Below are positions 2,917-60,470 of a DNA stretch of 64,000 bases, one piece after another (the stretch's first letter is position 1; every line of letters begins with the position of its first letter). Position numbers and translations under genes: made by a program. The DNA lies in assembly GCF_026626745.1 (NCBI RefSeq), contig NZ_JAPNJW010000001.1, positions 908,311 to 972,310 of the forward strand, in the 5' to 3' direction. Origin of the DNA: Nannocystis sp. RBIL2 (lineage in GTDB: Bacteria; Myxococcota_A; Polyangia; Nannocystales; Nannocystaceae). A model generated the notes under the pieces. The model saw only the letters and a program-made list of their open reading frames with translations, was not told the origin of the DNA and searched no databases.

Positions 2917-5250
2917 ATGCAAGCTCCTGCCCCGCGCCGCCTCCTCATCTCTGCCGTCAGCCTCGCAGTCGTCGCCGCTTGCGACCCCGAGCTCGCGCCG
3001 CGACCGGAAACCACCGCGCGCGAGGCCAGCCTGCTGGCCGCGCCCGGGCTCGACTGCCTCACCGACACCAAGCTGCGCCTGCATCACGACGACGGCACCC
3101 TCGACGTCACCACCGACCTCGCCGCCGGCCTCGCCGAGCTCGCGCGGCCCCGCGACCTCGTCGAGCTGTCCTTCGCGGTCACCCCCCAGTGCGCCGCCGA
3201 CCACCGGCGCGTCACCCTCGCCGCCTACACCACCCAGGGCATCAACCTCGGCCTCGACCCGGTCTACCCGCCGACCGCCTTCGACGTCCACACCACCCGC
3301 CTCGGCGGCGACACTTACCTCCTGCGCGTGCGCTTGCCCGACTGCTACTACGAGCTCGACCTCGCGTTCGGCGAGCCGCTCCCGGTCCAGCGGCCCCAGC
3401 TCTCCTACGCCGCCCAGTCGCGCCTGATCCTCGCCGCGATCGGCGGCGACACCACTTGCGACGAGGCCCCCCTCGCGGTCGAGCGCTTCGATCCGGTCGA
3501 GGCCGGCTGGGGCGACGCTCCCGTGTCCGCTCACTTCGGCTGGCGGCTCACCGCCGACCCTGCAGCCCAGCTGCGCTGCGAGTTCGACTTCGACGCCGAC
3601 GGCCAGCCCGACGTGATCCACGAGCCCTGCAGCCGCACCACCGAGCTCGTCAAGACCGCCGCCCTGCCGCAGTGGACCTACCCCGTCGGCAAGCACCGGC
3701 CCGAGCTCGTCGTCAGCGACGGCCAGCGGCGGATCTGGGCCGGCACCGACATCTACGCCAACCACCTCGACTACAAGCCCGACGTCCACTTCCTCGAGGA
3801 GCGGCCCGACTTCCTCGGCGCCGACGTCACAGTCGAGCCCGCCCCCGACCTGAGCCAGGTCGTGCTCCACTTCAAGGACGCGGCGACGCTCCCCGACGTC
3901 GCCGCGGGCGAGGTCGTCGTCGGCCACGGCGGCGCGCGCGGCTACATGCTGCGCGTCGAAGCCGTCACCTACGAAGACGCCGACCTCGTGCTCCTCGGCG
4001 TGCCGGTCGGCCTCGACGACGTCCTCGCCGGCGGCTTCTTCGGCGTCCGCGACCTCCCGATCGACACCTCCGACGTCGCCTGCGTCGCCGAGCCGTGCCC
4101 CGACGAGATCGTCGTGCTCCCCGATCTGCCCGCGGGCCCCGGCGAGACCGCGGAGATCGGGACGCTCGCGCTCGACGAGAGCGTCGACCCGATCCCTCCT
4201 CCGGGCGGCCCCAGGCTGGTGTTCAAGTTCGGCGACCACGGCGAGCTCCACTTCTCCCCCGGCCTCGACGTCGAGCGCTTCGAGCTCGACGTCGATTGGT
4301 TCAGCGTCCCTCACGCCGACGTGGCGATCACGCCGACCATCCACGCCAGCATCGTCGTCAAGGCCGGCCTCACCCAGGCCTTCGAGTTCGGCGAGCTCTA
4401 CCTCGGGACCTTGCCGCTGGCCATCCCGGTGTCGATCATGCTGCGGCCCGAGCTGGAGGTCGAGGCCGCCTACAAGTTCACCGGCACCGTCGCTGCGAGC
4501 GCCACCGGCACCGCCTTCAAGGATCACACCGGCTGGCGGACTGGGCTCGAGACCCACGTCGACGGCCTCCTCGACAACTTCGGCGCCGCCATGGGCCCCG
4601 AGCTCAGCGCCACCTTGCTGGCCAAGTTCGTCATGACGCTGGGCTTCCTCGACGGCCCCTACGTCGCGCCGCTCGCCACCGTCGGCCTGCGCAACACCAT
4701 GGACGGCTGCGAGACCTGCAACCAGGCTTTCTGGGAGGGCGGCGCCGAGTTCGGGTGGGAGGCCTTCGGCAGCGAGCTGTTCGACGCGATCAAGATCATC
4801 CTCGCCGCCGGCGAGATCTGGAAGGACTGCGAGGCCACCGGGCCGTCCTGCGAGCCGCTGTCGGGCGGCCCCGTGATCGTCCGCCCGCGCGACGGCGTCC
4901 TCCTCGACTGCCAGCAATACCCGAAGCTGGTGTTCCGCGCGCCCGGGGCCGCCACCACCGAGGACGTGAACAGCCCGCATCAGTTCACCATCCACGTGAA
5001 CGCGACGCACCAGCAGCACGGCCTCTACGACTACGTCGTCAACACCGCCTTCCGCGGCGGCCTGCCCGAGTGGGACATCCAGTGCGTCCCGCTGGGCGAC
5101 GACGGCTGGGGCGAGTGCAGCTTCACCCCCGCCGACAACCCGTGCAGCTTCGGCGGCTCGCAGTGGTCCAATCATTCGTGGAGCGTCACCGCCCACGTCC
5201 CGCCCGCCAGCGGCAGCCCCACCGACGTGGCGACCTTCGACGTCCCCTGA
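2917..5250 (+). CDS. large hypothetical lipoprotein (777 aa)
   Basis: ATG at 2917 is in frame with ORF 2620..5250. The signal peptide with lipobox is MQAPAPRRLLISAVSLAVVAAC. Coding bias is good throughout and I recognise no domain. Confidence 0.6.
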   Translation: MQAPAPRRLLISAVSLAVVAACDPELAPRPETTAREASLLAAPGLDCLTDTKLRLHHDDGTLDVTTDLAAGLAELARPRDLVELSFAVTPQCAADHRRVTLAAYTTQGINLGLDPVYPPTAFDVHTTRLGGDTYLLRVRLPDCYYELDLAFGEPLPVQRPQLSYAAQSRLILAAIGGDTTCDEAPLAVERFDPVEAGWGDAPVSAHFGWRLTADPAAQLRCEFDFDADGQPDVIHEPCSRTTELVKTAALPQWTYPVGKHRPELVVSDGQRRIWAGTDIYANHLDYKPDVHFLEERPDFLGADVTVEPAPDLSQVVLHFKDAATLPDVAAGEVVVGHGGARGYMLRVEAVTYEDADLVLLGVPVGLDDVLAGGFFGVRDLPIDTSDVACVAEPCPDEIVVLPDLPAGPGETAEIGTLALDESVDPIPPPGGPRLVFKFGDHGELHFSPGLDVERFELDVDWFSVPHADVAITPTIHASIVVKAGLTQAFEFGELYLGTLPLAIPVSIMLRPELEVEAAYKFTGTVAASATGTAFKDHTGWRTGLETHVDGLLDNFGAAMGPELSATLLAKFVMTLGFLDGPYVAPLATVGLRNTMDGCETCNQAFWEGGAEFGWEAFGSELFDAIKIILAAGEIWKDCEATGPSCEPLSGGPVIVRPRDGVLLDCQQYPKLVFRAPGAATTEDVNSPHQFTIHVNATHQQHGLYDYVVNTAFRGGLPEWDIQCVPLGDDGWGECSFTPADNPCSFGGSQWSNHSWSVTAHVPPASGSPTDVATFDVP

Positions 5251-8528: not shown

Positions 8529-10031
8529 ATGCGTAGTTCGACTCGTCTTCGCTGCCAAACCACCGCATTTACCCTCGCCACCCTCGCGGCGATCCACGGA
8601 TGCGGCGACGCGGGCAGCAGCACGGCGAGCGACGGCACTGCCACCCAGGGCCCGGGCCCGACCGGCACCGCCGGGACGATGACCGGCACCGGCACCGCCA
8701 CCGAGACCTCGGGCGACGTGCCCACGGGCACCGGCACGCAGGGCGAGACGCAGGGCACCACCACCACCGCGCCGACCACCACCGCGCCGACGAGCACGAC
8801 CACCGCGACCACCACCGAGGGCGTCACGGTCACCAGCACCGACGGCACCGCCACCACCGCGACGACGACCACCACCACGGGCGGCATGAAGCTCGACATG
8901 GGCGGCCCGCCGGTCTGTCCGCCCGACGATCAGCCCGTCACCTTCGATTACATCTGGATCGCCAACACCACCCAGGGCACGGTCTCCAAGATCAACACGA
9001 TGACGGGCGTCGAGGAGGGCCGCTATTACACCAACGCGGTGCCGGGCAGCGGCGAGCCGTCGCGCACCTCCGTCAACCAGTTCGGCGACGTCGCGGTCAG
9101 CAACCGCAATCCGGGCAGCGTCACCAAGGTCATGGCATTGCCGGAGAAGTGCGTCGACAACAACGGCAACGGCGTGATCGACACCTCGACGGGCCCTGGC
9201 GACATTCGCCCGTGGGGTCAGGACGAATGCGTGGTGTGGCACACCGCGCTGCCGCTGGCCGACGGCTATTACGGCGGCGCGCGCCCGACCGCGTGGGAGG
9301 GCGTGGCCCAGGACCCGGTCACCTGCGAGACCCCGGTCCCGCGGCTGTGGGTCGGCTACAAGGACATCAACGGCATCGCCCACTTCGCGCGCCTCGAAGG
9401 CAACACCGGCGCGATCCTCGACGACGTCCAGCGCCCCGGCTGGACCACCAACACGTTCGGCCCCTACGGCGGCGCCGTCAACTCCGCCGGCGACCTGTTC
9501 GTCATCGGCTACGACAACGAGGTCTCGATCCGCATCGACGCCGCCACCCTCGCGATCGAGGAGCTCGGCCTCTCCCCCGGCCAGTACAAGTACGGCATGG
9601 GCGTCGACCAGAACGGCAACATGTGGGTCGGCAGCTTCTCCGGCACCGATCACATGTACTTCTACGACCCGGTCGCCAAGCAGTGGCAGGGTATGGGCAA
9701 CGGCGGCAACAACGGCGGCGGCGCGCTCGGCATCGCCGTCGACGACGAGAACCGGGTGTGGGGCGCCGCCAACGGCCCGTGCCGCCTCATCGAGCTCGAC
9801 GGCGACACCAAGACCTGGACCAACCAGAACATCACCCTGCCCGACTGCGGCTCGCCGTGGGGCGTCAGCATCGACAACGAGGGCTACGTATGGGTCGTCG
9901 ACAAGGCCAACAAGGCCTACAAGGTCGACCCCGACACCTATGAGATCAAGCTCGTCGTCACCGGCCTCGTCAATCCATATACCTACTCCGACATGACCGG
10001 CCAGGGCCTCAAGCTCGTCCTCCCGCAGTGA
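8529..10031 (+). CDS. hypothetical lipoprotein with Thr/Gly-rich linker and beta-propeller-like C-terminal region
   Basis: It starts with the signal/lipobox (LATLAAIHGC), followed by a long TGT/TTT-rich linker and a roughly 380-aa region with repeated Gly/aromatic segments. Confidence 0.6.
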   Translation: MRSSTRLRCQTTAFTLATLAAIHGCGDAGSSTASDGTATQGPGPTGTAGTMTGTGTATETSGDVPTGTGTQGETQGTTTTAPTTTAPTSTTTATTTEGVTVTSTDGTATTATTTTTTGGMKLDMGGPPVCPPDDQPVTFDYIWIANTTQGTVSKINTMTGVEEGRYYTNAVPGSGEPSRTSVNQFGDVAVSNRNPGSVTKVMALPEKCVDNNGNGVIDTSTGPGDIRPWGQDECVVWHTALPLADGYYGGARPTAWEGVAQDPVTCETPVPRLWVGYKDINGIAHFARLEGNTGAILDDVQRPGWTTNTFGPYGGAVNSAGDLFVIGYDNEVSIRIDAATLAIEELGLSPGQYKYGMGVDQNGNMWVGSFSGTDHMYFYDPVAKQWQGMGNGGNNGGGALGIAVDDENRVWGAANGPCRLIELDGDTKTWTNQNITLPDCGSPWGVSIDNEGYVWVVDKANKAYKVDPDTYEIKLVVTGLVNPYTYSDMTGQGLKLVLPQ

Positions 10032-17881: not shown

Positions 17882-18532
17882 TCAATCGGCCTCGAAGATC
17901 ACCCGCTCGAAGTCACCCGACCCGTTGAGGTTCTCGGTCGTGCCGCAGCGATAGCCAGTGCCGATCTCGTTGCCGAGGGTGTGCCAGCACAGGCGCATAT
18001 TGGAGTTGGCCTCCGGACCGCCGAATTGAGTGTCGCACTCCGTACGATTCACCGCATCGCCCGCCTGCGCGAAGCCCCACGACCAATTGTCGCTGAAGTA
18101 CCAGGCGACCCCGTTGGCCTCGTGCTTGCCGGTGAGCTGGGTGCCGACGTCGAACAGAACGTCCGCGCGCTCCCCCATCGCCAGCAGCTGGAAATTGGGC
18201 GCGCCGACCTGGCGACAGGCCATGAGGAGCTTCGACCCGGTGCAATCCTGGCCGAGGATCGTCCCGGTGAGGTCGGGCTCGGACTCGCCGTAGATATTCG
18301 AGAAGCACTCGGTCCAGCCGACCAGGTCGCCCGCGGGCACGTCCGCCTGCGGTCCCTCCGCCCAGTACATCGGCTCCGGGCCGCCACCGTCGTCATCGTC
18401 ATCGTCATCGTCGTGGTCGTCGTTATCGTCGTGGTCGTCCTGGTCGTCGTGATCGTCGTGATCGACCTCGCAATTTTGAAGATAGGGGATTGTGCACAAT
18501 AGGCCGCTCAACGCGATCGTGGTGAAGTTCAT
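17882..18532 (-). CDS. hypothetical secreted protein with acidic (DHDD)n His/Asp repeat
   Basis: Met at 18532 with a GGAGAA RBS 5 nt upstream. The signal peptide is MNFTTIALSGLLCTIPYLQNC, followed by DHDDHDDQDDHDDNDDHDDDDDDDDGGG and a Cys-containing globular domain. Confidence 0.55.
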   Translation of the reverse strand: MNFTTIALSGLLCTIPYLQNCEVDHDDHDDQDDHDDNDDHDDDDDDDDGGGPEPMYWAEGPQADVPAGDLVGWTECFSNIYGESEPDLTGTILGQDCTGSKLLMACRQVGAPNFQLLAMGERADVLFDVGTQLTGKHEANGVAWYFSDNWSWGFAQAGDAVNRTECDTQFGGPEANSNMRLCWHTLGNEIGTGYRCGTTENLNGSGDFERVIFEAD

Positions 18533-18705
18533 GGGATTCTCCGGGCGCCTCGAATATGCGACACGTCGCAGGGGCGGCAACGATGAAGGTTGACGCCGCG
18601 CACGTCTCTCCGCCCCTACTCGAGCACGCCCCGAGCCCACGGCGTTCTGCAAGCTTGTCCAACACGCTCGCGCTCGCGCCACGAAGTTCCCCGCGCACCC
18701 GGCCG

Positions 18706-18968
18706 CGCCGAAAGCTCGCGAGAAAGCGTCGATGCGACGGCCAGCCCTGGCCGTCGCATCGACGCCGACGTCCTGCCTTTCGGGCGCGCTCCCGAACGGA
18801 GCCGAGTCCGGCGCGGCGGCTCCTCACGGCTGCAGCCGTGCCCGGGGTCCGGGGAAGGGCCGGCCGCGAATTAGAGACAGGATGGGCGCGAGGAACGAGC
18901 GTCCATCCTGTCGGTCAACTCGCGGCCGGACCTTCCCCGGACCCCCCGCGAGGCGCAGCCGGCAATTA
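18706..18968 (-). ncRNA. candidate structured RNA / 3'-UTR-terminator module, copy 1 of a duplicated roughly 260-bp element
   Basis: It is about 80% identical to 48651-48909 and contains four hairpins. The differences between copies are compensatory, for example a 15-bp stem cgatgcgacggccag/ctggccgtcgcatcg versus ctgttcggcggccag/ctggccgccgaacag. It begins 28 bp after the pfkB-family gene stop on the minus strand. On the minus strand it ends in a GC hairpin followed by CGCUUUCUCGCG. Confidence 0.4.
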
Positions 18969-18996
18969 GCGAAGCCCCCGCGCTACTCCCCGAGCC

Positions 18997-19938
18997 TCAG
19001 GTCAAGCTCGCGCGCGCAAAGTTCGTCAGCGCAGCGAACGTCTCGAAGCGCTTCTGGATCGTCGCCGCATCGAGCCCCTTCAGCCGGTCGTACGAGAACC
19101 CCTCGACGCAGAACGAAGCCATCACCGACCCGTAGATCATCGCGGTGCGCAGCGAGGCCCCGCTGGTCTCCACCCCTGGGCGGGCCAGATAGCCCATGAA
19201 GCCGCCCGCGAAGCTGTCGCCAGCGCCCGTCGGGTCGACCACGTCTTCGAGCGGCAGCGCCGGCGCCGAGAACATCTCACCGTCCGCGTCGAACAGCAGC
19301 GCCCCGTACTCACCGCGCTTGATCACCACGTTGCGGGGACCGAGGGCCCGGATCGCGCGGGCTGCCTTCACGATGTTGTGCTCGCCGCTGAGCTGGCGGG
19401 CCTCCTCGTCGTTGAGGGTCAGCACGTCCACGTTCTTGAGCACCGCCTTGAGGTCGTCGTTGGCGATCGAGATCCACAGGTTCATCGTGTCGAGGCCGAC
19501 CAGGCGGGGCCGATGCATCTGCGCGAACACGTCGCTCTGCAGGCGCGGCTGGATGTTGGCCAGGAACAGGAACTCGCTGCCGCGGAACTCGTCCGGCAGG
19601 CGCGGCTGGAACTTCTCGAACACGTTGAGGTGCGTCTCGAGCGTCGTCCGGTCGTTCATGTTCTCGTGGTACTGGCCCTTCCAGCGGAAGGTCAGCCCGT
19701 CCTGCACGATCTCGAGGCCAGAGGTGTCGACGCCTGCGGCCTTCAGGTCGGCCACCGCGTAGTCGGGGAAGTCGCGCCCGACCACGCCGACCAGCCGCAC
19801 CTGGGACAGGTACGACGCCGCCATCGCGAAGAAGGTCGCCGACCCGCCGACGCTCTCGGGCCGCTCGGCGCGGGGCGTGATGATCCAGTCGATGGCGACG
19901 CTGCCGACGACGACGAGGTGGGGCTTACTGACGGTCAT
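18997..19938 (-). CDS. PfkB-family carbohydrate/nucleoside kinase
   Basis: It has a ribokinase-like fold with the signature DPTGAGDSFAGGFMGYLA near the C-terminus and an N-terminal GS/VAxD motif. It is probably co-transcribed downstream of mtnP. Confidence 0.8.
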   Translation of the reverse strand: MTVSKPHLVVVGSVAIDWIITPRAERPESVGGSATFFAMAASYLSQVRLVGVVGRDFPDYAVADLKAAGVDTSGLEIVQDGLTFRWKGQYHENMNDRTTLETHLNVFEKFQPRLPDEFRGSEFLFLANIQPRLQSDVFAQMHRPRLVGLDTMNLWISIANDDLKAVLKNVDVLTLNDEEARQLSGEHNIVKAARAIRALGPRNVVIKRGEYGALLFDADGEMFSAPALPLEDVVDPTGAGDSFAGGFMGYLARPGVETSGASLRTAMIYGSVMASFCVEGFSYDRLKGLDAATIQKRFETFAALTNFARASLT

Positions 19939-38636: not shown

Positions 38637-38647
38637 CCCGCTCGTCG

Positions 38648-38880
38648 CATCACATGTCCTTCGGGACAGCCTCCGGCGCGCCCGACACGGCTCATCACCT
38701 GTCTCTCGGGCCATCCTCCCCCGCGCCCGCACGAGCTCTGCCGCGAGCCCTCGCCCGAGCGAGCGCCGCCACGCCTCATCGCCTGTCCTTCGGGCCATCC
38801 TCCGCCGCGCGAGCTCAGGCGCCCGCGCGAGCCCTCGCGCGAGCGAGTGCCGCCGCTCCCCACCTGTCCTTGAAAAAATC
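38648..38880. repeat. tandem roughly 84-bp repeats, each headed by a CATCAC(C/A)TGTCCTTCGGG hairpin-family unit, in the exbD-tonB spacer
   Basis: The units are catcacatgtccttcgggacagcctcc, catcacctgtctctcgggccatcctcc, ctcatcgcctgtccttcgggccatcctcc and cacctgtccttgaaaaaa. Units 2 and 3 are full 84-bp tandem copies. Confidence 0.6.
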
Positions 38881-40253: not shown

Positions 40254-40952
40254 ATGGGGAAGCCGGCCACCGCGCTCGTCGTCGCGCTCGTGCTCGCCGC
40301 CTGCAAGTCGGAGCCCGGGGACGAGAGCACCGGCAGCGGCAGCGACGGCACGACCACGACCACGACCTCCGCCGCTGCCACGACCCCGGGGCCCACCACC
40401 GCCGGGCCCACCACCGCCGAGCTCACCACCACGTCGACCACCTCCGTCGACACCGAGACCTCGACCACCGGCGTCGACGAGGCGCTGTGCGCCGACTACT
40501 GCGCCGACGTCATGACGAACTGTCTCGACCCGCAGGCGCAGTACCCGAACGCCGACAGCTGCAAGCGCGCCTGCGCCAGCTTCCCCGCCGGTGCGCGCGG
40601 TGACGTCTCGGGCAACAGCTACGCCTGTCGCCGCTACCACACCGACGCCGCCGTCATGGACGCGGCGACCCACTGCGTGCACGCCGGCCCGAGCGGCGGC
40701 GGCGCCTGCGGCGACAACTGCGACGGCTTCTGCGCCCTCGCGGTGTCCGTCTGCCCGGGCGAGCACCCGAGCCTCGACGCCTGCCTGGCCTCCTGCGCCG
40801 GCTTCACCGACGACGAGGAGTTCGACGTGGGCGACGTCGCCGGCGACACCCTCGCCTGCCGCCTCTACCACCTCACCGTCGCGGCCACCGGCGAGGCCGA
40901 CGCCGCAGTGCACTGCCCGCACACCCTCCAGGGCTCCCCGCCCTGCATGTAA
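40254..40952 (+). CDS. Cys-rich lipoprotein with internally duplicated SGN(S)xACRxYH...HCxH module (paralog A)
   Basis: It has the lipobox (LVLAAC), a T-rich linker, about 20 Cys, the repeated motifs SGNSYACRRYH...THCVHAGPSGGGACG and TLACRLYHLT...VHCPHT, and a C-terminal SPPCM. Confidence 0.6.
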   Translation: MGKPATALVVALVLAACKSEPGDESTGSGSDGTTTTTTSAAATTPGPTTAGPTTAELTTTSTTSVDTETSTTGVDEALCADYCADVMTNCLDPQAQYPNADSCKRACASFPAGARGDVSGNSYACRRYHTDAAVMDAATHCVHAGPSGGGACGDNCDGFCALAVSVCPGEHPSLDACLASCAGFTDDEEFDVGDVAGDTLACRLYHLTVAATGEADAAVHCPHTLQGSPPCM

Positions 40953-40970
40953 AGACATGTCCCTTCAACC

Positions 40971-41759
40971 ATGCCGGTTCACGCCGCCACGCAAGGCCCT
41001 CGCATGACCTCTCGCGCCTTCCTTCCCCTCCTCGTCACCCTCCTGTTCCCCGCCTGCTTCGACGACTCGCGCGGTGACGACACCGGCTCGACCGTGAGCA
41101 CCACGGTCATGACCACGACCGCGACCCAGGTCAGCGGCGACGTCACGACCACCACGACGACCGGCACCTCCACGACCGACTGGACCTCCGGCGAGCCCAC
41201 CACCTCGACCACCACCAGCGACGTCGATCCGCTCACCAGCACCAGCGACCCGACCACCGGCACCTCGAGCACCGGCGGCGACACCAACGTCGGCTGCCAG
41301 ATGTACTGCGCGGCGATGATGGGCAGCTGCACCGGCACCAACGCCCAGTACCCGAGCAACGAGAGCTGCCTCGGCGCCTGCGGCGGCCTCCCGCCGGGCT
41401 CGCCGGGCGAGACCTCCGGCAACTCGCTGTCCTGCCGGGCCTACCACGCCGGCATGGCCTCGATCGATCCGGGCGTCCACTGCATCCACGCCGGCCCCAG
41501 CGGCGCCGGCGCGTGCGGCCAGAGCTGCGAGGGCTTCTGCGCCATCGCCACCTCGATCTGCCCGACCGAGCACCCGAGCCCCGGCGACTGCATGGCCACC
41601 TGCGCCAACTTCATGGACACCGAGCCGTACAACACCGAGGACGCCGCCGGCAACACCCTCGCCTGCCGCCTCTACCACCTCACGATCGCCTCCACTGGCC
41701 CGGCCGAGGCCCAGGTCCACTGCGGCCACACCATCGAGGCCTCGCCGCCCTGCATGTGA
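40971..41759 (+). CDS. Cys-rich lipoprotein paralog B
   Basis: It has the same architecture and motifs as 40254..40952 (SGNSLSCRAYH...VHCIHAGPSGAGACG, TLACRLYHLT...VHCGHT, C-terminal SPPCM). It is a tandem paralog 18 bp downstream. Confidence 0.6.
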   Translation: MPVHAATQGPRMTSRAFLPLLVTLLFPACFDDSRGDDTGSTVSTTVMTTTATQVSGDVTTTTTTGTSTTDWTSGEPTTSTTTSDVDPLTSTSDPTTGTSSTGGDTNVGCQMYCAAMMGSCTGTNAQYPSNESCLGACGGLPPGSPGETSGNSLSCRAYHAGMASIDPGVHCIHAGPSGAGACGQSCEGFCAIATSICPTEHPSPGDCMATCANFMDTEPYNTEDAAGNTLACRLYHLTIASTGPAEAQVHCGHTIEASPPCM

Positions 41760-46748: not shown

Positions 46749-48335
46749 GTGAGACGACCCGTGCCCACTTCCCGAACGCACCGCAGCCCGATCGCCTCCG
46801 CGGCGAGGGCCTGCCTCGCCGTGGTTCTCACCTGTCCTTTCGTACACCTCGGCTGCCTCCTCGATCCCAGCCCGCTGGGCGAGCTCCCGGGCGACACCGA
46901 CGGCCCTGACACCGTCGAGCTCGATACCCTCGTCGTCACCTCGCAGCACGTCGACGACACCACCGTCGGTCCGCTGCCGACCACCACCGCCGAGCCGGGC
47001 ACCACCGGCGACCCGCCCGACGGCACCACCGGTGAGCCCGTCACCACCGGCGACGATCCGCCGCCGGAGACCGGCTGCATCGACGGCGGCGCCTGCGAGC
47101 AGCTCGACGTCCTGTTCGTCATCGACAACTCCGGCACCATGGGCGAGGAGCAGAGCCAGCTCGCCGACAGCTTCCCTGCCTTCGTCTCGCTGCTGCGCGG
47201 CCTCAGCGACGCCAACGGTCAGCTCGTCGGCGCCGACGTGCACATCATGGTCACCACCACCGACGTGCCGCACCCGCTGTGCACGCCGTTCGAGAAGCCC
47301 GACTACGACGCCGCCGACGGCCAGCCGATCGACACCCCGTGCACCGACCGGCTGGCGCGGTTTACCGGCCTCGGCGCCGATCCGCCGGTGATGTCCGAGA
47401 TCTGCACCTCGCGCTGCTCCGAGGCCGCCCCCTCGATCCCCACCGATCCGTTCATCCGCTTCAGCCCCACCAGCCACAACATCATCGACCCTGACGGCAT
47501 GGGCGACCCCGCGGCCGACGCCCTCGCCTGCATCGGCCCCCAGGGCATCGACGGCTGCGGCATGGAGTCGCCGCTCGAGGCCATGCTGCGCGCGCTCGAC
47601 CTCGAGGCGCGGTGGAACATCGGCGAGCGGCCCTTCTTGCGCCCCGGCGCCCCGCTGGCGGTCGTCCTCGTCACCGACGAGACCGACTGCTCCACCCTCA
47701 ACTTCGCCTACTTCGACCCCAAGCTGCACGACGACCCCGAGTTCAGCAAGTACTGGCCGTCCCACCCGAGCAGCGGCCAGCGGACCGAGCCCACCAGCGC
47801 CGTGTGCTGGAACGCCGGCATGACCTGCGCCGACGACGACGACGACGGCGAGTACGAGTGGTGCATGTCCGAGGACAAGCACGTCCTCCAGCCCGTCGCC
47901 CGCTACACCGAGGCCCTCGCCGGCCTGCGCCAGCTCCACGGCAAAGAAGTCGTCATGCTCGTCCTCGGCGGCGTCCCTCAGGTCACCGAGCACAACCAAG
48001 CCCCTCCGTTCGAGCCCCTCGTCGGCGGCGTCGACGCCCTCGTCTACCGCGACTGGCAGCCCGACGACATCCTCCCCGGCGACAGCGACACCCCCGCCGA
48101 CAAGCAGTTCGAGTTCGGCATCGGCCCCGGCTGCGTCGGCCCCGCCGGCCAGGCCGTCCCGCCCGGGCGGATCCAGGAAGTCTGCCAGTCGCTCGACATC
48201 CCCGACGACCCCGACACCGCCGTCAACGAACGCGCCATGCGCTGCTGCATCGAGTCCGTCTGCGACAGCGACTACACCCCCGCCCTCGGCTGCCTCGCCG
48301 GCATGCTGCAGCCGACCCTCCACGCCATGCCCTGA
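46749..48335 (+). CDS. hypothetical secreted vWA-like protein, last gene of the ECF operon
   Basis: It has a signal peptide, a T/P/G-rich linker and a DxSxT context (LFVIDNSGTMGEEQSQL) with many Cys pairs. The N-terminal signal-peptide codons contain a hairpin-family unit (ctcacctgtcctttcgtacacctc). Confidence 0.6.
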   Translation: MRRPVPTSRTHRSPIASAARACLAVVLTCPFVHLGCLLDPSPLGELPGDTDGPDTVELDTLVVTSQHVDDTTVGPLPTTTAEPGTTGDPPDGTTGEPVTTGDDPPPETGCIDGGACEQLDVLFVIDNSGTMGEEQSQLADSFPAFVSLLRGLSDANGQLVGADVHIMVTTTDVPHPLCTPFEKPDYDAADGQPIDTPCTDRLARFTGLGADPPVMSEICTSRCSEAAPSIPTDPFIRFSPTSHNIIDPDGMGDPAADALACIGPQGIDGCGMESPLEAMLRALDLEARWNIGERPFLRPGAPLAVVLVTDETDCSTLNFAYFDPKLHDDPEFSKYWPSHPSSGQRTEPTSAVCWNAGMTCADDDDDGEYEWCMSEDKHVLQPVARYTEALAGLRQLHGKEVVMLVLGGVPQVTEHNQAPPFEPLVGGVDALVYRDWQPDDILPGDSDTPADKQFEFGIGPGCVGPAGQAVPPGRIQEVCQSLDIPDDPDTAVNERAMRCCIESVCDSDYTPALGCLAGMLQPTLHAMP

Positions 48336-48414: not shown

Positions 48415-48640
48415 CCGACTCACCGCCCGGCGACCGCCAGCCCGCCTCGCGCCGTGATGTCCACGCGCCGCCGCCCCCCGACCGCCAGCCGGCGCCGCGC
48501 CGTGATGCCCACGCGCCGACACCCCCCGATTGCCAGCCCGCGCCGCGCCGTGATGCTCACGCGCCTCCGCCCCACGACCGCCAGCCCTCACCGCGCCACG
48601 ACGCCGCGCCGCGCCACGACCCGCAGTCCCTCGCCGCGCG
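48415..48640. repeat. about 3.5 tandem copies of a 60-bp direct repeat
   Basis: The unit gaccgccagcc(c/g)gc(c/g)ycgcgccgtgatg(y)ycacgcgcc...cccc(c) repeats head to tail between the vWA-like gene and element copy 2. Confidence 0.6.
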
Positions 48641-48650
48641 GAGATGCCAC

Positions 48651-48909
48651 GCCGAAAGGACGCGAGAAAGCGTCTGTTCGGCGGCCAGCCCTGGCCGCCG
48701 AACAGGCGCCCCAGCTCTGCTCCCGACGACTGCCGCCAGCGAAGCCGAGGCGGCGTGGCGGCTTCTCACGGCTGCAGCCGTGCCAGGGGTCCGGGGAAGG
48801 GGCGGCCGCGAATTAGAGGCGAGATGGGCGCGAGGCACGAGCGTCCATCCCGCCGGTTAACTCGCGGCCGCTCCTTCCCCGGACCCCCCGCGAGGCGCAG
48901 TCGGCAATA
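48651..48909 (-). ncRNA. candidate structured RNA / 3'-UTR-terminator module, copy 2
   Basis: It is the homolog of 18706-18968 with covarying stems. It begins 16 bp after the stop (48925) of the minus-strand hydrolase gene. In this copy the a/c mismatch on the plus strand of one stem would be a U.G wobble on the minus strand. Confidence 0.4.
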
Positions 48910-48924
48910 CGCGAACCAGAGCAC

Positions 48925-51003
48925 CTACCCCGGATCGCAAACCCCCTCGCAAGAGTTCGAGACCACCCCCTCGAGCAAGAACGCCCCGAGGATCCCCTGC
49001 ACCGCCGGCTCGTCGACCGCCGCCCCGTGCGCCCCATTGTCCCCGGCCGCAGGCAGGTTCTCGACCGGAGGCAGCGGCCCCTTCTTCGTATCGACCTGCA
49101 GCAGCGCCGACCCCGTGAACCCCGGCGGAGCCTCCTCGATCCCCCACACCGGCCACACCGAAGGTCCTGCCATCCTCATCCCGTACGAGCGGGCCATCGC
49201 CTCCGACGCGATGTTTGCCACCTGTGCGTCGCCGATCGACTCGATGAGCAGCAGAGCATCGCCAGCCTCCTCGATCAGCGAGCGGTACGTCACCGGGTCT
49301 GCCACGTCGAACACTGCCTGGTACAGCGCGAACAGGAACTCGCGGTTCTGCGTGCTCGGCTGCGTCGCTGCCCACACCGAGTTCACCTGTTCGAACGCAG
49401 TCGAGCGCCACACCATCAGCGAGTAGTTCGACGCCCCGACCACCAGCACGCCGCGTCGCAGGTTCGGCGCCATCGCAGTCACCGTCGCCCCCATGATCCC
49501 GCCCTGCGACCCGCCGACGTAGTACACCGACGACGGGTCGATCAGCCCTTGCAGCGCCGGCTCCTGCGCCAGCTCGCCCTGGGCCAGATACGCCAGCGTC
49601 GTGAAGTTCACCGTCGACTGCACCAGTCGTTCGCCCAGCGTCCGGCCGCCGACGAAGTTGCCGCCGAGCATCCCGATCACCGCCGCGATGTCATCCTCCG
49701 ACATCCCCCAGAAGTCGGTCCCTGCCATGATGAGCGACCCGTTCTTCTTCGCCACCGACTCCGCCTCCGAGCCCGAGCCGAGCAGCCCGTGCCCGTACAC
49801 CGCCACCGGCGCCGGCGTCTTCGCCTCGTAGATCGCCTGCGGCACCGCGATCCAGAAGTTCGCGGTCGCGGTGTTCGAGCAGTCCGGCAGCCCCTCCGGA
49901 TCGCGGGCGAACACAGTCCCGGGCCCGCTGTTGCCCTCGAGGCAGCTCGGCACCGTGAACGTCCCGCGCACCACCAGCGGCACCTGCGTGCCCGGGAACT
50001 CGCTCACCTCCGCGATCGTGTAGCCGAGGTCCCCGGCCTCCGCGCTCGCCACGACCTGCGGCATGATCGCAGTGAAGTCGCGCTGCAGGTCCGCCTGCGT
50101 GTTCGTCGTGAAGTCCCACGCCAGCTGCAGCGACCCGCGATCGATCCCCGCGGCGGCCAGCGTCGCGAAGATCTCGTCGTAGCGTTCGCGCTCGGCCTCG
50201 AGCTGCGGCACGTCGGTCGTCAGCGCATCGCGCAGCGCGCGGAACAGCGGCGAGGTCGGGATCTCCTCGCCGTTTTTATCGCGCAGCCCGCGAACGGCGA
50301 CCACGTAGCGCTCGCCCGCACGCGGCTGTCGCATCGGCCGCACGAAGATCGTCTGTGGTTCGCCTGCCACGGCCGTCGCATCGACCTCCGCGAAGTATGG
50401 CCAGCGTTCCCCCGAGCTGACCTCGAGCAGCACGATCGGCGCCTCGTCGGCCAGCGAACTTCCGATGTCACCGAGCGGCGGCAGCGACGACCCGTCGATG
50501 GGCTGCGCCGACGCGAACCGGATCTGCGCGTTGGGAGTGAACCCCGGCTTCCCGTTGATGAACTCGTCTGCGGGGAACTCCGCCTGCTGCGTGTTCTTCG
50601 GCAGCAGCGCCGCCGGCAACGCCACTGCCAGGCCGGTCGGGCTGTCGCCTGACGACGTCGTGTAGAAGTTCGACGGCCACGGGTACACGCACTGGCCGCG
50701 GCCTGCGGGGTCGCCGAGCGGGTGGCAACCGGCCTCGATGTCCGCGCGACCGACGGCCTCGCAGCTCCCCCCGACGCACGCTTCGTCCGTCGCGCAGCCC
50801 TCGGGGCAACCGTCCTGCGCGCCAGTAGATCCGGAGCTGCCCGATGACGAGGTCGTTGGGACAGGTTCCGTCGGACCTGTCGTCTCGGACATCTCGGAGC
50901 TCGCCCCGGTGGTCGAGGCGCCGTCGGTCGCGCTGCTCACGGCCGGATCCTGGCAAGCGACGAGGCCGACGGTGACGAGGGATACGAGGCTCGATCTGCG
51001 CAC
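48925..51003 (-). CDS. secreted lipoprotein with alpha/beta-hydrolase-like nucleophile elbow
   Basis: It has a GTG start and the lipobox (VTVGLVAC), an S/T/G linker, an EGF-like Cys cluster and a roughly 550-aa domain containing VYYVGGSQGGIMGATV (a GxSxG-type elbow). Confidence 0.6.
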   Translation of the reverse strand: MRRSSLVSLVTVGLVACQDPAVSSATDGASTTGASSEMSETTGPTEPVPTTSSSGSSGSTGAQDGCPEGCATDEACVGGSCEAVGRADIEAGCHPLGDPAGRGQCVYPWPSNFYTTSSGDSPTGLAVALPAALLPKNTQQAEFPADEFINGKPGFTPNAQIRFASAQPIDGSSLPPLGDIGSSLADEAPIVLLEVSSGERWPYFAEVDATAVAGEPQTIFVRPMRQPRAGERYVVAVRGLRDKNGEEIPTSPLFRALRDALTTDVPQLEAERERYDEIFATLAAAGIDRGSLQLAWDFTTNTQADLQRDFTAIMPQVVASAEAGDLGYTIAEVSEFPGTQVPLVVRGTFTVPSCLEGNSGPGTVFARDPEGLPDCSNTATANFWIAVPQAIYEAKTPAPVAVYGHGLLGSGSEAESVAKKNGSLIMAGTDFWGMSEDDIAAVIGMLGGNFVGGRTLGERLVQSTVNFTTLAYLAQGELAQEPALQGLIDPSSVYYVGGSQGGIMGATVTAMAPNLRRGVLVVGASNYSLMVWRSTAFEQVNSVWAATQPSTQNREFLFALYQAVFDVADPVTYRSLIEEAGDALLLIESIGDAQVANIASEAMARSYGMRMAGPSVWPVWGIEEAPPGFTGSALLQVDTKKGPLPPVENLPAAGDNGAHGAAVDEPAVQGILGAFLLEGVVSNSCEGVCDPG

Positions 51004-60249: not shown

Positions 60250-60470
60250 GCGCAATCCGGTCGCGCGCCAAAGTGCTCGCGAGTCCTGCGTCGGCCCGCG
60301 AGCGCGACCCCGTGTTCGCGCCCTCGCCTGCACGCCTCTGCGATCTCGACCCCGTGTTCGCCCCGCCCGCGAGCCTCCGCGAACGCGATGTCGTGTTCGC
60401 GCCGCCCGCGAGTCCTGCGTGCCTCCGCGAGCGCGATCACGAGGCCGCCCGTTCCAGCAAACTCGCATCG
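60250..60470. repeat. four imperfect tandem repeats (about 40 bp, CGCGAgCGCGAyC-CCGTGTTCGCG core) immediately upstream of the guaD-like gene
   Basis: ...cccgcgagcgcgaccccgtgttcgcgcc / ...ctgcgatctcgaccccgtgttcgccc / ...ccgcgaacgcgatgtcgtgttcgcgcc / ...ccgcgagcgcgatcacg. Confidence 0.55.

Follow-up and report, generated by a model that had tools for sequence, protein, structure and literature searches.

What is a structured sequence of about 275 nt doing in two places of the window, each time directly behind a gene of the minus strand? By the window we mean the whole stretch of Nannocystis DNA that was analysed, 64 kb in length. A sequence-only reading of this stretch had taken the two segments, at about 80% identity, for a duplicated pair of likely functional RNAs ending in what resembles a high-GC intrinsic terminator. 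With limits refined to 18702–18975 for copy 1 and 48646–48917 for copy 2, the segments align along their whole length, with a mean column identity of 85% (380 columns, flanks included) and 90% over 165 nt ungapped (repeat family D8), so that their homology is borne out. Each copy also carries a weakly conserved left extension of about 12 nt, with which the homologous spans become 18690–18975 and 48635–48918. Stem 1 reads cgatgcgacggccag/ctggccgtcgcatcg in copy 1 and ctgttcggcggccag/ctggccgccgaacag in copy 2, with four differences per arm that are all compensated, and the inner stem changes from gacaggatgg/ccatcctgtc in copy 1 to ggcgagatgg/ccatcccgcc in copy 2, with two covariations and one A/C mismatch. 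Retained in both copies are cacggctgcagccgtg as a palindrome and, in the long nested stem, ggtccggggaagg...ccttccccggacc and GGTCCGGGGAAGG/CCTTCCCCGGACC, whereas the central 50 nt or so diverge. The four compensated differences, the second stem with its mismatch and the conserved palindrome and long stem around a divergent middle had all been claimed from the letters of the window, and each is present as claimed. On either strand the fold of each copy is far more stable than that of dinucleotide-shuffled sequences (z = -9.2 to -10.8), none of 200 shuffles reaching it.

A genus-wide family of intergenic elements

The window copies are members of a Nannocystis-specific family of structured intergenic elements of about 275 bp. 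At least 35 intergenic copies were collected. They come from five species of Nannocystis and from three contigs of metagenomes, and the collections searched yielded none outside these. A scan of a genome collection holding one genome per species, with the outer rod stem as the pattern, returned 28 loci in N. pusilla, N. radixulma, N. exedens, N. punicea, and N. bainbridge, together with seven chance matches elsewhere. A profile built from the two window copies aligned with all 28 of these loci across the whole length of about 280 nt. Additional copies are those at L007, L017, L042, L043, and L047; the metagenome scan accounts for only two Nannocystis-like copies beyond the 28 loci. The metagenome locus L047 was found via a neighbouring protein, and was therefore not selected by the DNA pattern. 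A covariance model of the 5' domain gave 32 full matches among the collected loci. The copies are scattered singly over contigs, and the two in the window lie 29.9 kb apart, with no third copy in the 64 kb detected by nhmmer or by a covariance model with its filters off. Plasmid and phage collections contained no match to the element, and viral contigs only a chance match.

Comparison of the window with Rfam 15 at gathering thresholds gave no match. When the E-value limit was relaxed to 10, only sub-threshold matches appeared, the best of which were miRNA-precursor hairpins (37.8 bits against a threshold of 97), and no retron msr family was among them; the Rfam comparison proposed in the sequence-only reading thus leads to no known family. 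None of the papers searched describes a Nannocystis family of about 275 nt, and the family is probably undescribed, or barely described at most. The idea of a duplicated pair has to be given up in favour of a genus-wide dispersed family with filled and empty orthologous sites, tandem end modules, and decayed copies.

Anatomy, covariation and constraint of the element

In plus-strand orientation of the window, the parts of the element follow one another as 5' domain, palindrome, rod, and tail (Table 1). The 5' domain, 114–119 nt in length, consists of P1, a 9-bp long-range helix GNCACGCCG/CGGCGNGNC whose strands are about 110 nt apart, enclosing the 19-bp stem 1 and a small variable hairpin. 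The 3' domain of 151–156 nt contains the palindrome, a nested rod of about 100 nt, and the tail, which ends across the family in the near-invariant sequence GGCAATTCGCGAAGC. Neither the palindrome CACGGCTGCAGCCGTG nor the sequence TTCGCGAA covaries, both being invariant across copies; the three exceptions among 29 palindromes are each altered in the central loop only.

Table 1. Coordinates of the two element copies, their parts and the adjoining features in the window
Feature	Positions	Strand	Remarks
P1 5' strand, copy 1 (GCCGCGCCG), left end of element	18702–18710		Pairs with 18809–18817; covaries in the family
Stem 1, 19-bp hairpin, copy 1	18726–18765		Five pairs changed on both sides across the family
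Variable segment, copy 1	18766–18808		Small TGTCC...GGACA-type hairpin in most copies
P1 3' strand, copy 1 (CGGCGCGGC)	18809–18817		Covariation with 18702–18710
Invariant 16-nt palindrome CACGGCTGCAGCCGTG, copy 1	18825–18840		Unchanged in 26 of 29 copies
Rod, long nested hairpin with internal loops and GAA apical loop, copy 1	18844–18945		Inner and apical covariation
Conserved tail ...CCGCGAGGCGCAGCCGGCAATTAGCGAAGC, copy 1, right end of element	18946–18975		Near-invariant across copies
pfkB-family kinase gene	18997–19938	-	Pfam PF00294, E = 9.5e-35; stop faces right end of copy 1
48-bp tandem repeats, 3–4 units, directly left of copy 2	48426–48605		Repeat family D9
Copy 2, whole element	48646–48917		P1 48646–48654/48751–48759; stem 1 48670–48709
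Palindrome, copy 2	48767–48782		
Rod, copy 2	48786–48887		
Tail, copy 2	48888–48917		
Hydrolase-like gene, 692 aa	48925–51003	-	Stop beyond right end of copy 2, 7-nt gap

The secondary structure of the element is under selection. Covariation was measured on a set of 29 copies, with 500 column shuffles and structures slid by 1–3 columns as controls. In these copies 98.0% of stem cells are paired, compared with 92.4% in column shuffles. Pairs changed on both sides number 24, compared with 9.3 +/- 1.9 in the shuffles, none of which (0/500) reached 24, and with 5–9 in the slid controls. The covarying helices are four: P1, stem 1, the inner rod, and the rod apex. The outer rod, having served as the search pattern, is uninformative on covariation; the search put no such selection on the other helices. 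Mutual information added the covarying pairs 191–235, 211–215, and 17–131, of which 211–215 closes the conserved GAA apical loop, itself flanked by G.A/A.G.

The rate of change was also followed at orthologous sites. Four orthologous groups were available, W1/L003/L018, W2/L008/L009, L012/L013, and L011/L002, in which W1 and W2 are window copies 1 and 2; the orthologues of copy 2 are in N. pusilla (L008), N. radixulma (L009), and the metagenome contig L047. Conserved and variable columns were defined from other, independent copies, and the 4-fold sites of the adjacent gene served as the benchmark. Divergence at family-conserved columns, variable columns, and 4-fold sites was 2.5, 40.9, and 26.4% for W2/L009, 5.8, 29.2, and 25.6% for W1/L018, 3.1, 36.2, and 17.7% for L012/L013, and 2.3, 15.1, and 10.0% for W1/L003. 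Conserved and variable columns differed by 4.3 and 36.8% in L011/L002 and by 0.0 and 18.3% in W2/L008. The variable segment, at 29–41% in distant orthologue pairs and 15–18% in the closest pairs, changes at about the neutral rate, and the intergenic DNA adjoining orthologous copies is unalignable. Conserved columns at 2–6%, set against 10–26% at 4-fold sites, mean that the core evolves several-fold more slowly than silent sites and is therefore under purifying selection in place. The slow core of resident copies may possibly owe its rate to conversion rather than to purifying selection, and its pattern differs from the uniform decay of a dead repeat. Purifying selection on structure, proposed earlier from two copies, is upheld by the covariation over 29–35 copies and by the site-specific constraint in orthologous copies.

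Position, strand and turnover of the copies

In plus orientation of the element, 23 of 27 copies have a right-hand neighbour whose stop codon faces them, which corresponds to about 17 of 22 independent loci; for 17 of these stops the distance is no more than 100 nt. The usual distance from the tail end of the element to the stop codon is 8–100 nt. About two-thirds of copies also have a left neighbour that ends towards them, so that convergent gaps are favoured. Of 11 independent loci with such a gap, about 10 have the element closer to the right-hand gene. Roughly 5 of the 22 independent copies do not lie behind a gene 3' end. The neighbours are mutually unrelated, with no gene family shared among the loci, and the earlier observation that the element sits just downstream of unrelated genes holds family-wide. 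In the window the adjacency stands as described and the distances of 16–28 bp do not, since the gap remeasured to the minus-strand stop codon is 21 nt for copy 1 (stop 18997–18999) and 7 nt for copy 2 (stop 48925–48927). Orientation of the copies agrees with local GC skew in 12 of 24 cases, that is, with no association. A replication-linked orientation was rejected on this count, and the polarity is therefore tied to transcription and not to replication.

The DNA of the window belongs to close kin of N. pusilla, with a pfkB protein 98% identical to its counterpart there. Some other features of the neighbouring genes were recorded in passing. A small minus-strand gene at 17882–18532 (MNFTTIALSGLLC..., with a long Asp/His-rich run), lipoprotein-like and with no Pfam match, sits between copy 1 and a LysR gene and is missing from that gap in N. 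punicea and N. radixulma. In N. punicea another small lipoprotein-like ORF (L044, about 4881–5135) occupies the place where the element of copy 2 would sit. ACC/ACG-rich repeats with a 27-nt period occur inside long ORFs of the window at 356–587, 8757–8885, 40326–41287, and 46959–47051, and probably encode Thr/Pro-rich linkers in several large secreted proteins.

The gene context points to a transcript in the sense of the adjoining gene, which is the minus strand in the window. The folding evidence is more even. Recurrent G.U-type pairs, counted symmetrically, occupy about eight positions on the plus strand and about six on the minus strand, and the folding energy of the whole element does not differ between strands (p = 0.16). 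Stem 1 alone and the rod alone have a slight advantage in stability on the plus strand, and in most copies stem 1 has two A.C mismatches on the minus strand that are G.U on the plus strand. A first count of G.U pairs favoured the plus strand because it was biased by the plus-strand RNAalifold structure used; in-register pairs of the rod internal loops even the count, and that strand assignment was withdrawn. No intrinsic terminator (hairpin with U-tract, at least 5 T in 8) was found around either copy on either strand. The U-tract that follows stem 1 on the minus strand varies by copy (UUUCU, CUUCU, CAUCU), and the covarying partner of P1 lies downstream of it on that strand, so that an RNA ending at the tract could not form P1. 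The intrinsic terminator of the sequence-only reading is thus not supported. No conserved promoter was found within or beside the element on either strand.

The copies also behave in several ways as a repeat. The pfkB orthologues of N. punicea, N. exedens, N. radixulma, and two MAGs are followed by short hairpins of their own and have no element downstream. At the hydrolase locus the element is present in the window, N. pusilla, N. radixulma, and L047, and the site is empty in N. punicea (L044) and in L045 and L046, whose hydrolase orthologues are more distant than that of N. punicea. In one neighbourhood (L030 compared with L011/L002) the element is found, depending on the species, on one side or the other of a 450-bp gene. 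On the pfkB side of copy 1 the window is syntenic with N. pusilla Na p29 (L003 4892) at 96% identity, and this synteny breaks exactly at the left edge of copy 1 at about 18702; N. bainbridge has yet another left flank at this locus. The left edge of copy 1 marks a rearrangement breakpoint. The 48-bp unit repeated to the left of copy 2 resembles the left end of the element (GCCGTGATGCCCACGCGCC compared with GCGGAGATGCCACGCC), and comparable tandem end modules, left or right, flank copies in L025, L002, L030, L013, L033, L008, and L012. The left module is repeated four to five times in L025 (N. exedens) and also repeated in L002, and both loci hold solo left-module arrays; right-end units are repeated in L008, L012, L025, and L033. 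One copy (L017 6308–6493) has an intact 5' domain and tail with the rod precisely missing, and another (L007 7060–7286), decayed and arranged in tandem with an intact copy, has an inverted stem 1 loop (GGGC, not GCCC). Identity between paralogues of one genome reaches at most 90.8%, and all non-orthologous pairs taken together have a median of 82%; the lack of near-identical paralogues within a genome gives no sign of a recent burst.

Signs of a conventional transposable element were sought at the ends. There are no terminal inverted repeats, as the left end GNCACGCCG...GACGCGAG does not recur in inverted form at the right end, ...GGCAATTCGCGAAGC. Direct repeats of 3–8 nt at a range of boundary offsets showed no excess over flanks shuffled among copies, in a scan for target-site duplications whose power is limited because the right boundary is fuzzy. 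A MITE with target-site duplications, which the sequence-only reading had named as a contrary case, is matched here by neither inverted repeats nor an excess of duplications. No transposase recurred among the neighbours within the 8-kb loci.

Other repeats share these intergenic regions. Hairpins of the form TGTCC-N(2–12)-GGACA occur 13 times in the window compared with 0.44 expected from shuffles (positions 1714, 20012, 21627, 29409, 31531, 31570, 35287, 38655, 44264, 46424, 47866, 54948, and 55048). The related (CA)TGTCCC-N4-GGGACA(TG) is found behind stop codons in related loci, in arrays in L045, and as the variable hairpin inside many element copies. The TGTCC/GGACA hairpins look like a separate REP-like repeat family of Nannocystis. 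Further intergenic tandem repeats are located at 38637–38849 and 60273–60451, with units of 84 nt and about 48–81 nt; the former contains the motif CACCTGTCYCTYGGGCCATCC, which is interleaved with left-module fragments in L002.

Candidate functions and related systems

Several known systems resemble the element in part. The REP and BIME sequences of enterobacteria and pseudomonads, REPINs included, are likewise multi-copy and extragenic, lie behind gene 3' ends and often between convergent genes, form stable hairpins and mosaics with other short repeats, are linked to rearrangements, and are thought to act on mRNA 3' ends. However, REPs are imperfect palindromes of 20–40 nt with a GTAG-type foot, arranged in inverted pairs, present in hundreds of copies, and tied to RAYT transposases, whereas the Nannocystis element has about 275 nt, several domains with three different hairpins, a long-range helix, long invariant blocks, no conserved GTAG, and no sequence similarity to them. 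BOX of pneumococcus, RIME of rhizobia, and ERIC-type repeats are strongly folding intergenic sequences built of modules that vary in number, each family being confined to a single lineage and carrying no gene of its own. The Nannocystis element, with left and right modules in tandem, shares these traits and differs in sequence and host. Dispersed, intergenic, and strongly folding with variable modules, it has the characters by which the intergenic mosaic repeats (BIME, BOX, RIME) are recognised. Site-specific constraint between species is not a defining trait of BOX/RIME/ERIC-type families. Intrinsic terminators and 3'-UTR sRNAs are similar in their GC-rich hairpins immediately after stop codons and in the short U-run (UUUCU) after stem 1, but the element is about 10 times longer than a terminator, its U-run is poorly conserved and lies inside the domain closed by P1, and it fails the standard scan. 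It does not form an integron attC array, the copies being 29.9 kb apart in the window and single across contigs. Nor does it resemble IS200/IS605 PATEs or omega-RNAs, since its end hairpins differ, its orientation agrees with GC skew in only 12 of 24 cases, and no tnpA or tnpB partner is nearby.

On the comparison of these sequences, we tentatively favour a co-transcribed 3'-end hairpin module of REP/BIME/BOX-like kind that acts in cis, at a probability of roughly 45%. The position of the tail relative to the stop codon suggests that the element would be read through as a 3' extension of the upstream gene, on the minus strand in the window. The read-through transcript would fold into very stable hairpins, and these might stop or pause transcription and block 3' exonucleases, as is thought for REP/BIME and BOX-type repeats. 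Some mobilisation or recombination would have spread the copies. The stems and the core are kept by selection, so that the element is probably a working 3'-end element; it is probably not a unique RNA gene but one of a familiar kind. Of the functional RNA first proposed, selection on structure remains, and the private pair and the terminator do not. For blocking exonucleases alone, hairpins would suffice, and the element goes beyond them in its strongly conserved stretches of sequence and its long-range helix, which counts against so simple a role. Also against the module are the canonical terminator and promoter that were sought and not found, the position of the U-tract upstream of the P1 partner on the minus strand, the minus-strand A.C mismatches of stem 1, the slightly greater plus-strand stability of stem 1 and the rod, and the roughly 5 of 22 independent copies placed elsewhere than behind a gene 3' end. 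A large (about 275 nt), previously undescribed class of structured bacterial RNA with a host function at dozens of loci is a further reading, which we consider unlikely; such an RNA may be a retron-like template from which an RT in trans makes msDNA, or a protein-recruiting 3'-UTR domain.

The main rival to the 3'-end module, unlikely in our estimate, holds that the family derives from retrons and consists of dispersed msr-msd-like sequences that lack an RT beside them. The plus strand would then be the RNA, with an msr-like 5' hairpin domain and, in the rod domain of about 154 nt, an msd template for an RT acting in trans; alternatively, retrotransposition would have left the copies behind as relics. 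According to a review, Retron-Nex1 (Ne160) of N. exedens contains msr and msd repeats in several duplicates and lacks an RT within one kilobase, the duplicated repeats being attributed to a 1997 report by Lampson and Rice of 'repetitive sequences similar to msDNA' (PMC6868368). As far as that description goes, the likeness extends to the genus, to RT-less repeats, and to duplicated modules, and the msDNA-like repeats of 1997 may be this family, a comparison made with the wording of the review. The element is multi-copy in the same genus, its modules are tandemly duplicated in N. exedens L025, and RT-like ORFs are absent up to about 4 kb from every copy, matching the account of Nex1; no ORF of at least 200 aa with a Y[ACVL]DD motif was present in the window or in any Nannocystis locus. 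A multi-hairpin domain of 114–119 nt is followed by a long-hairpin domain of 151–156 nt, near the 160 nt of the msDNA, and stem 1 pairs better on the plus strand. Genus, copy pattern, and rod domain fit the description of Nex1, and a retron origin is kept as the main rival. Nevertheless, a1/a2 repeats in the flanks, an AGC context for priming, and an RT, by which retrons are recognised, were not found. Candidates for a closing helix (P0, a1/a2-like) were seen by eye in a few copies and rejected, as cognate flanks were no more complementary than non-cognate ones, and the consensus has no conserved AGC priming-G context beside such a stem. Also against a retron are the absence of an Rfam retron msr match up to E = 10 and of a conserved promoter on the plus side, the overall balance of the wobble evidence, and the polarity towards the stop codon of the convergent gene, which it leaves unexplained.

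The remaining alternatives divide over what the conserved stems are for. In a non-autonomous mobile element folding as ssDNA for a distant transposase (REPIN/RAYT- or IS200/IS605-PATE-like), the stems would be kept for mobility rather than for the host. The filled and empty orthologous sites, the different insertion points within one neighbourhood (L030 and L011/L002), the decayed and hairpin-deleted copies, the synteny break at the element edge, and the abundance of short REP-like hairpins in the same intergenic regions are in keeping with this. We consider it quite unlikely, however, because selection for mobility alone does not predict site-specific constraint in resident orthologous copies, near-identical within-genome paralogues are lacking, neither TIRs nor TSDs were found, the hairpins at the two ends differ in sequence, and orientation is unrelated to GC skew, unlike that of elements targeting the lagging strand. 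Long invariant blocks beside covarying helices that include a long-range one, two domains of constant length, a conserved GAA loop with a covarying closing pair, the constrained core at orthologous sites, and the lack of an Rfam match would all suit an independently transcribed, multi-copy structured ncRNA of a new class, trans-acting or cis-antisense. Such an RNA is very improbable in view of copies that are gained, lost, partly duplicated, and left to decay, of the lack of a conserved promoter on either strand inside or beside the element, and of a gene-relative position that suggests co-transcription instead. A cluster of palindromes acting at the DNA level, bound by a regulator or nucleoid protein and forming hairpins only incidentally, would explain why CACGGCTGCAGCCGTG and TTCGCGAA are invariant without covariation, as expected of sequence-specific recognition. 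It is scarcely credible all the same, as binding to dsDNA leaves the compensatory changes in four helices unexplained, those of P1, with strands about 110 nt apart, fitting least.

If the reading as a 3'-end module is right, Nannocystis would have its own large structured repeats behind genes, with covariation and measurable purifying selection. The host role of REP/BIME and BOX elements is still an open question, and the family would offer a clean case for such a role in the formation of transcript 3' ends, in mRNA stability, or in genome rearrangement. It also supplies a concrete sequence for comparison with the old report of RT-less msDNA-like repeats in N. exedens. Overall, the alignment and model would mark dozens of unannotated intergenic features in each Nannocystis genome.
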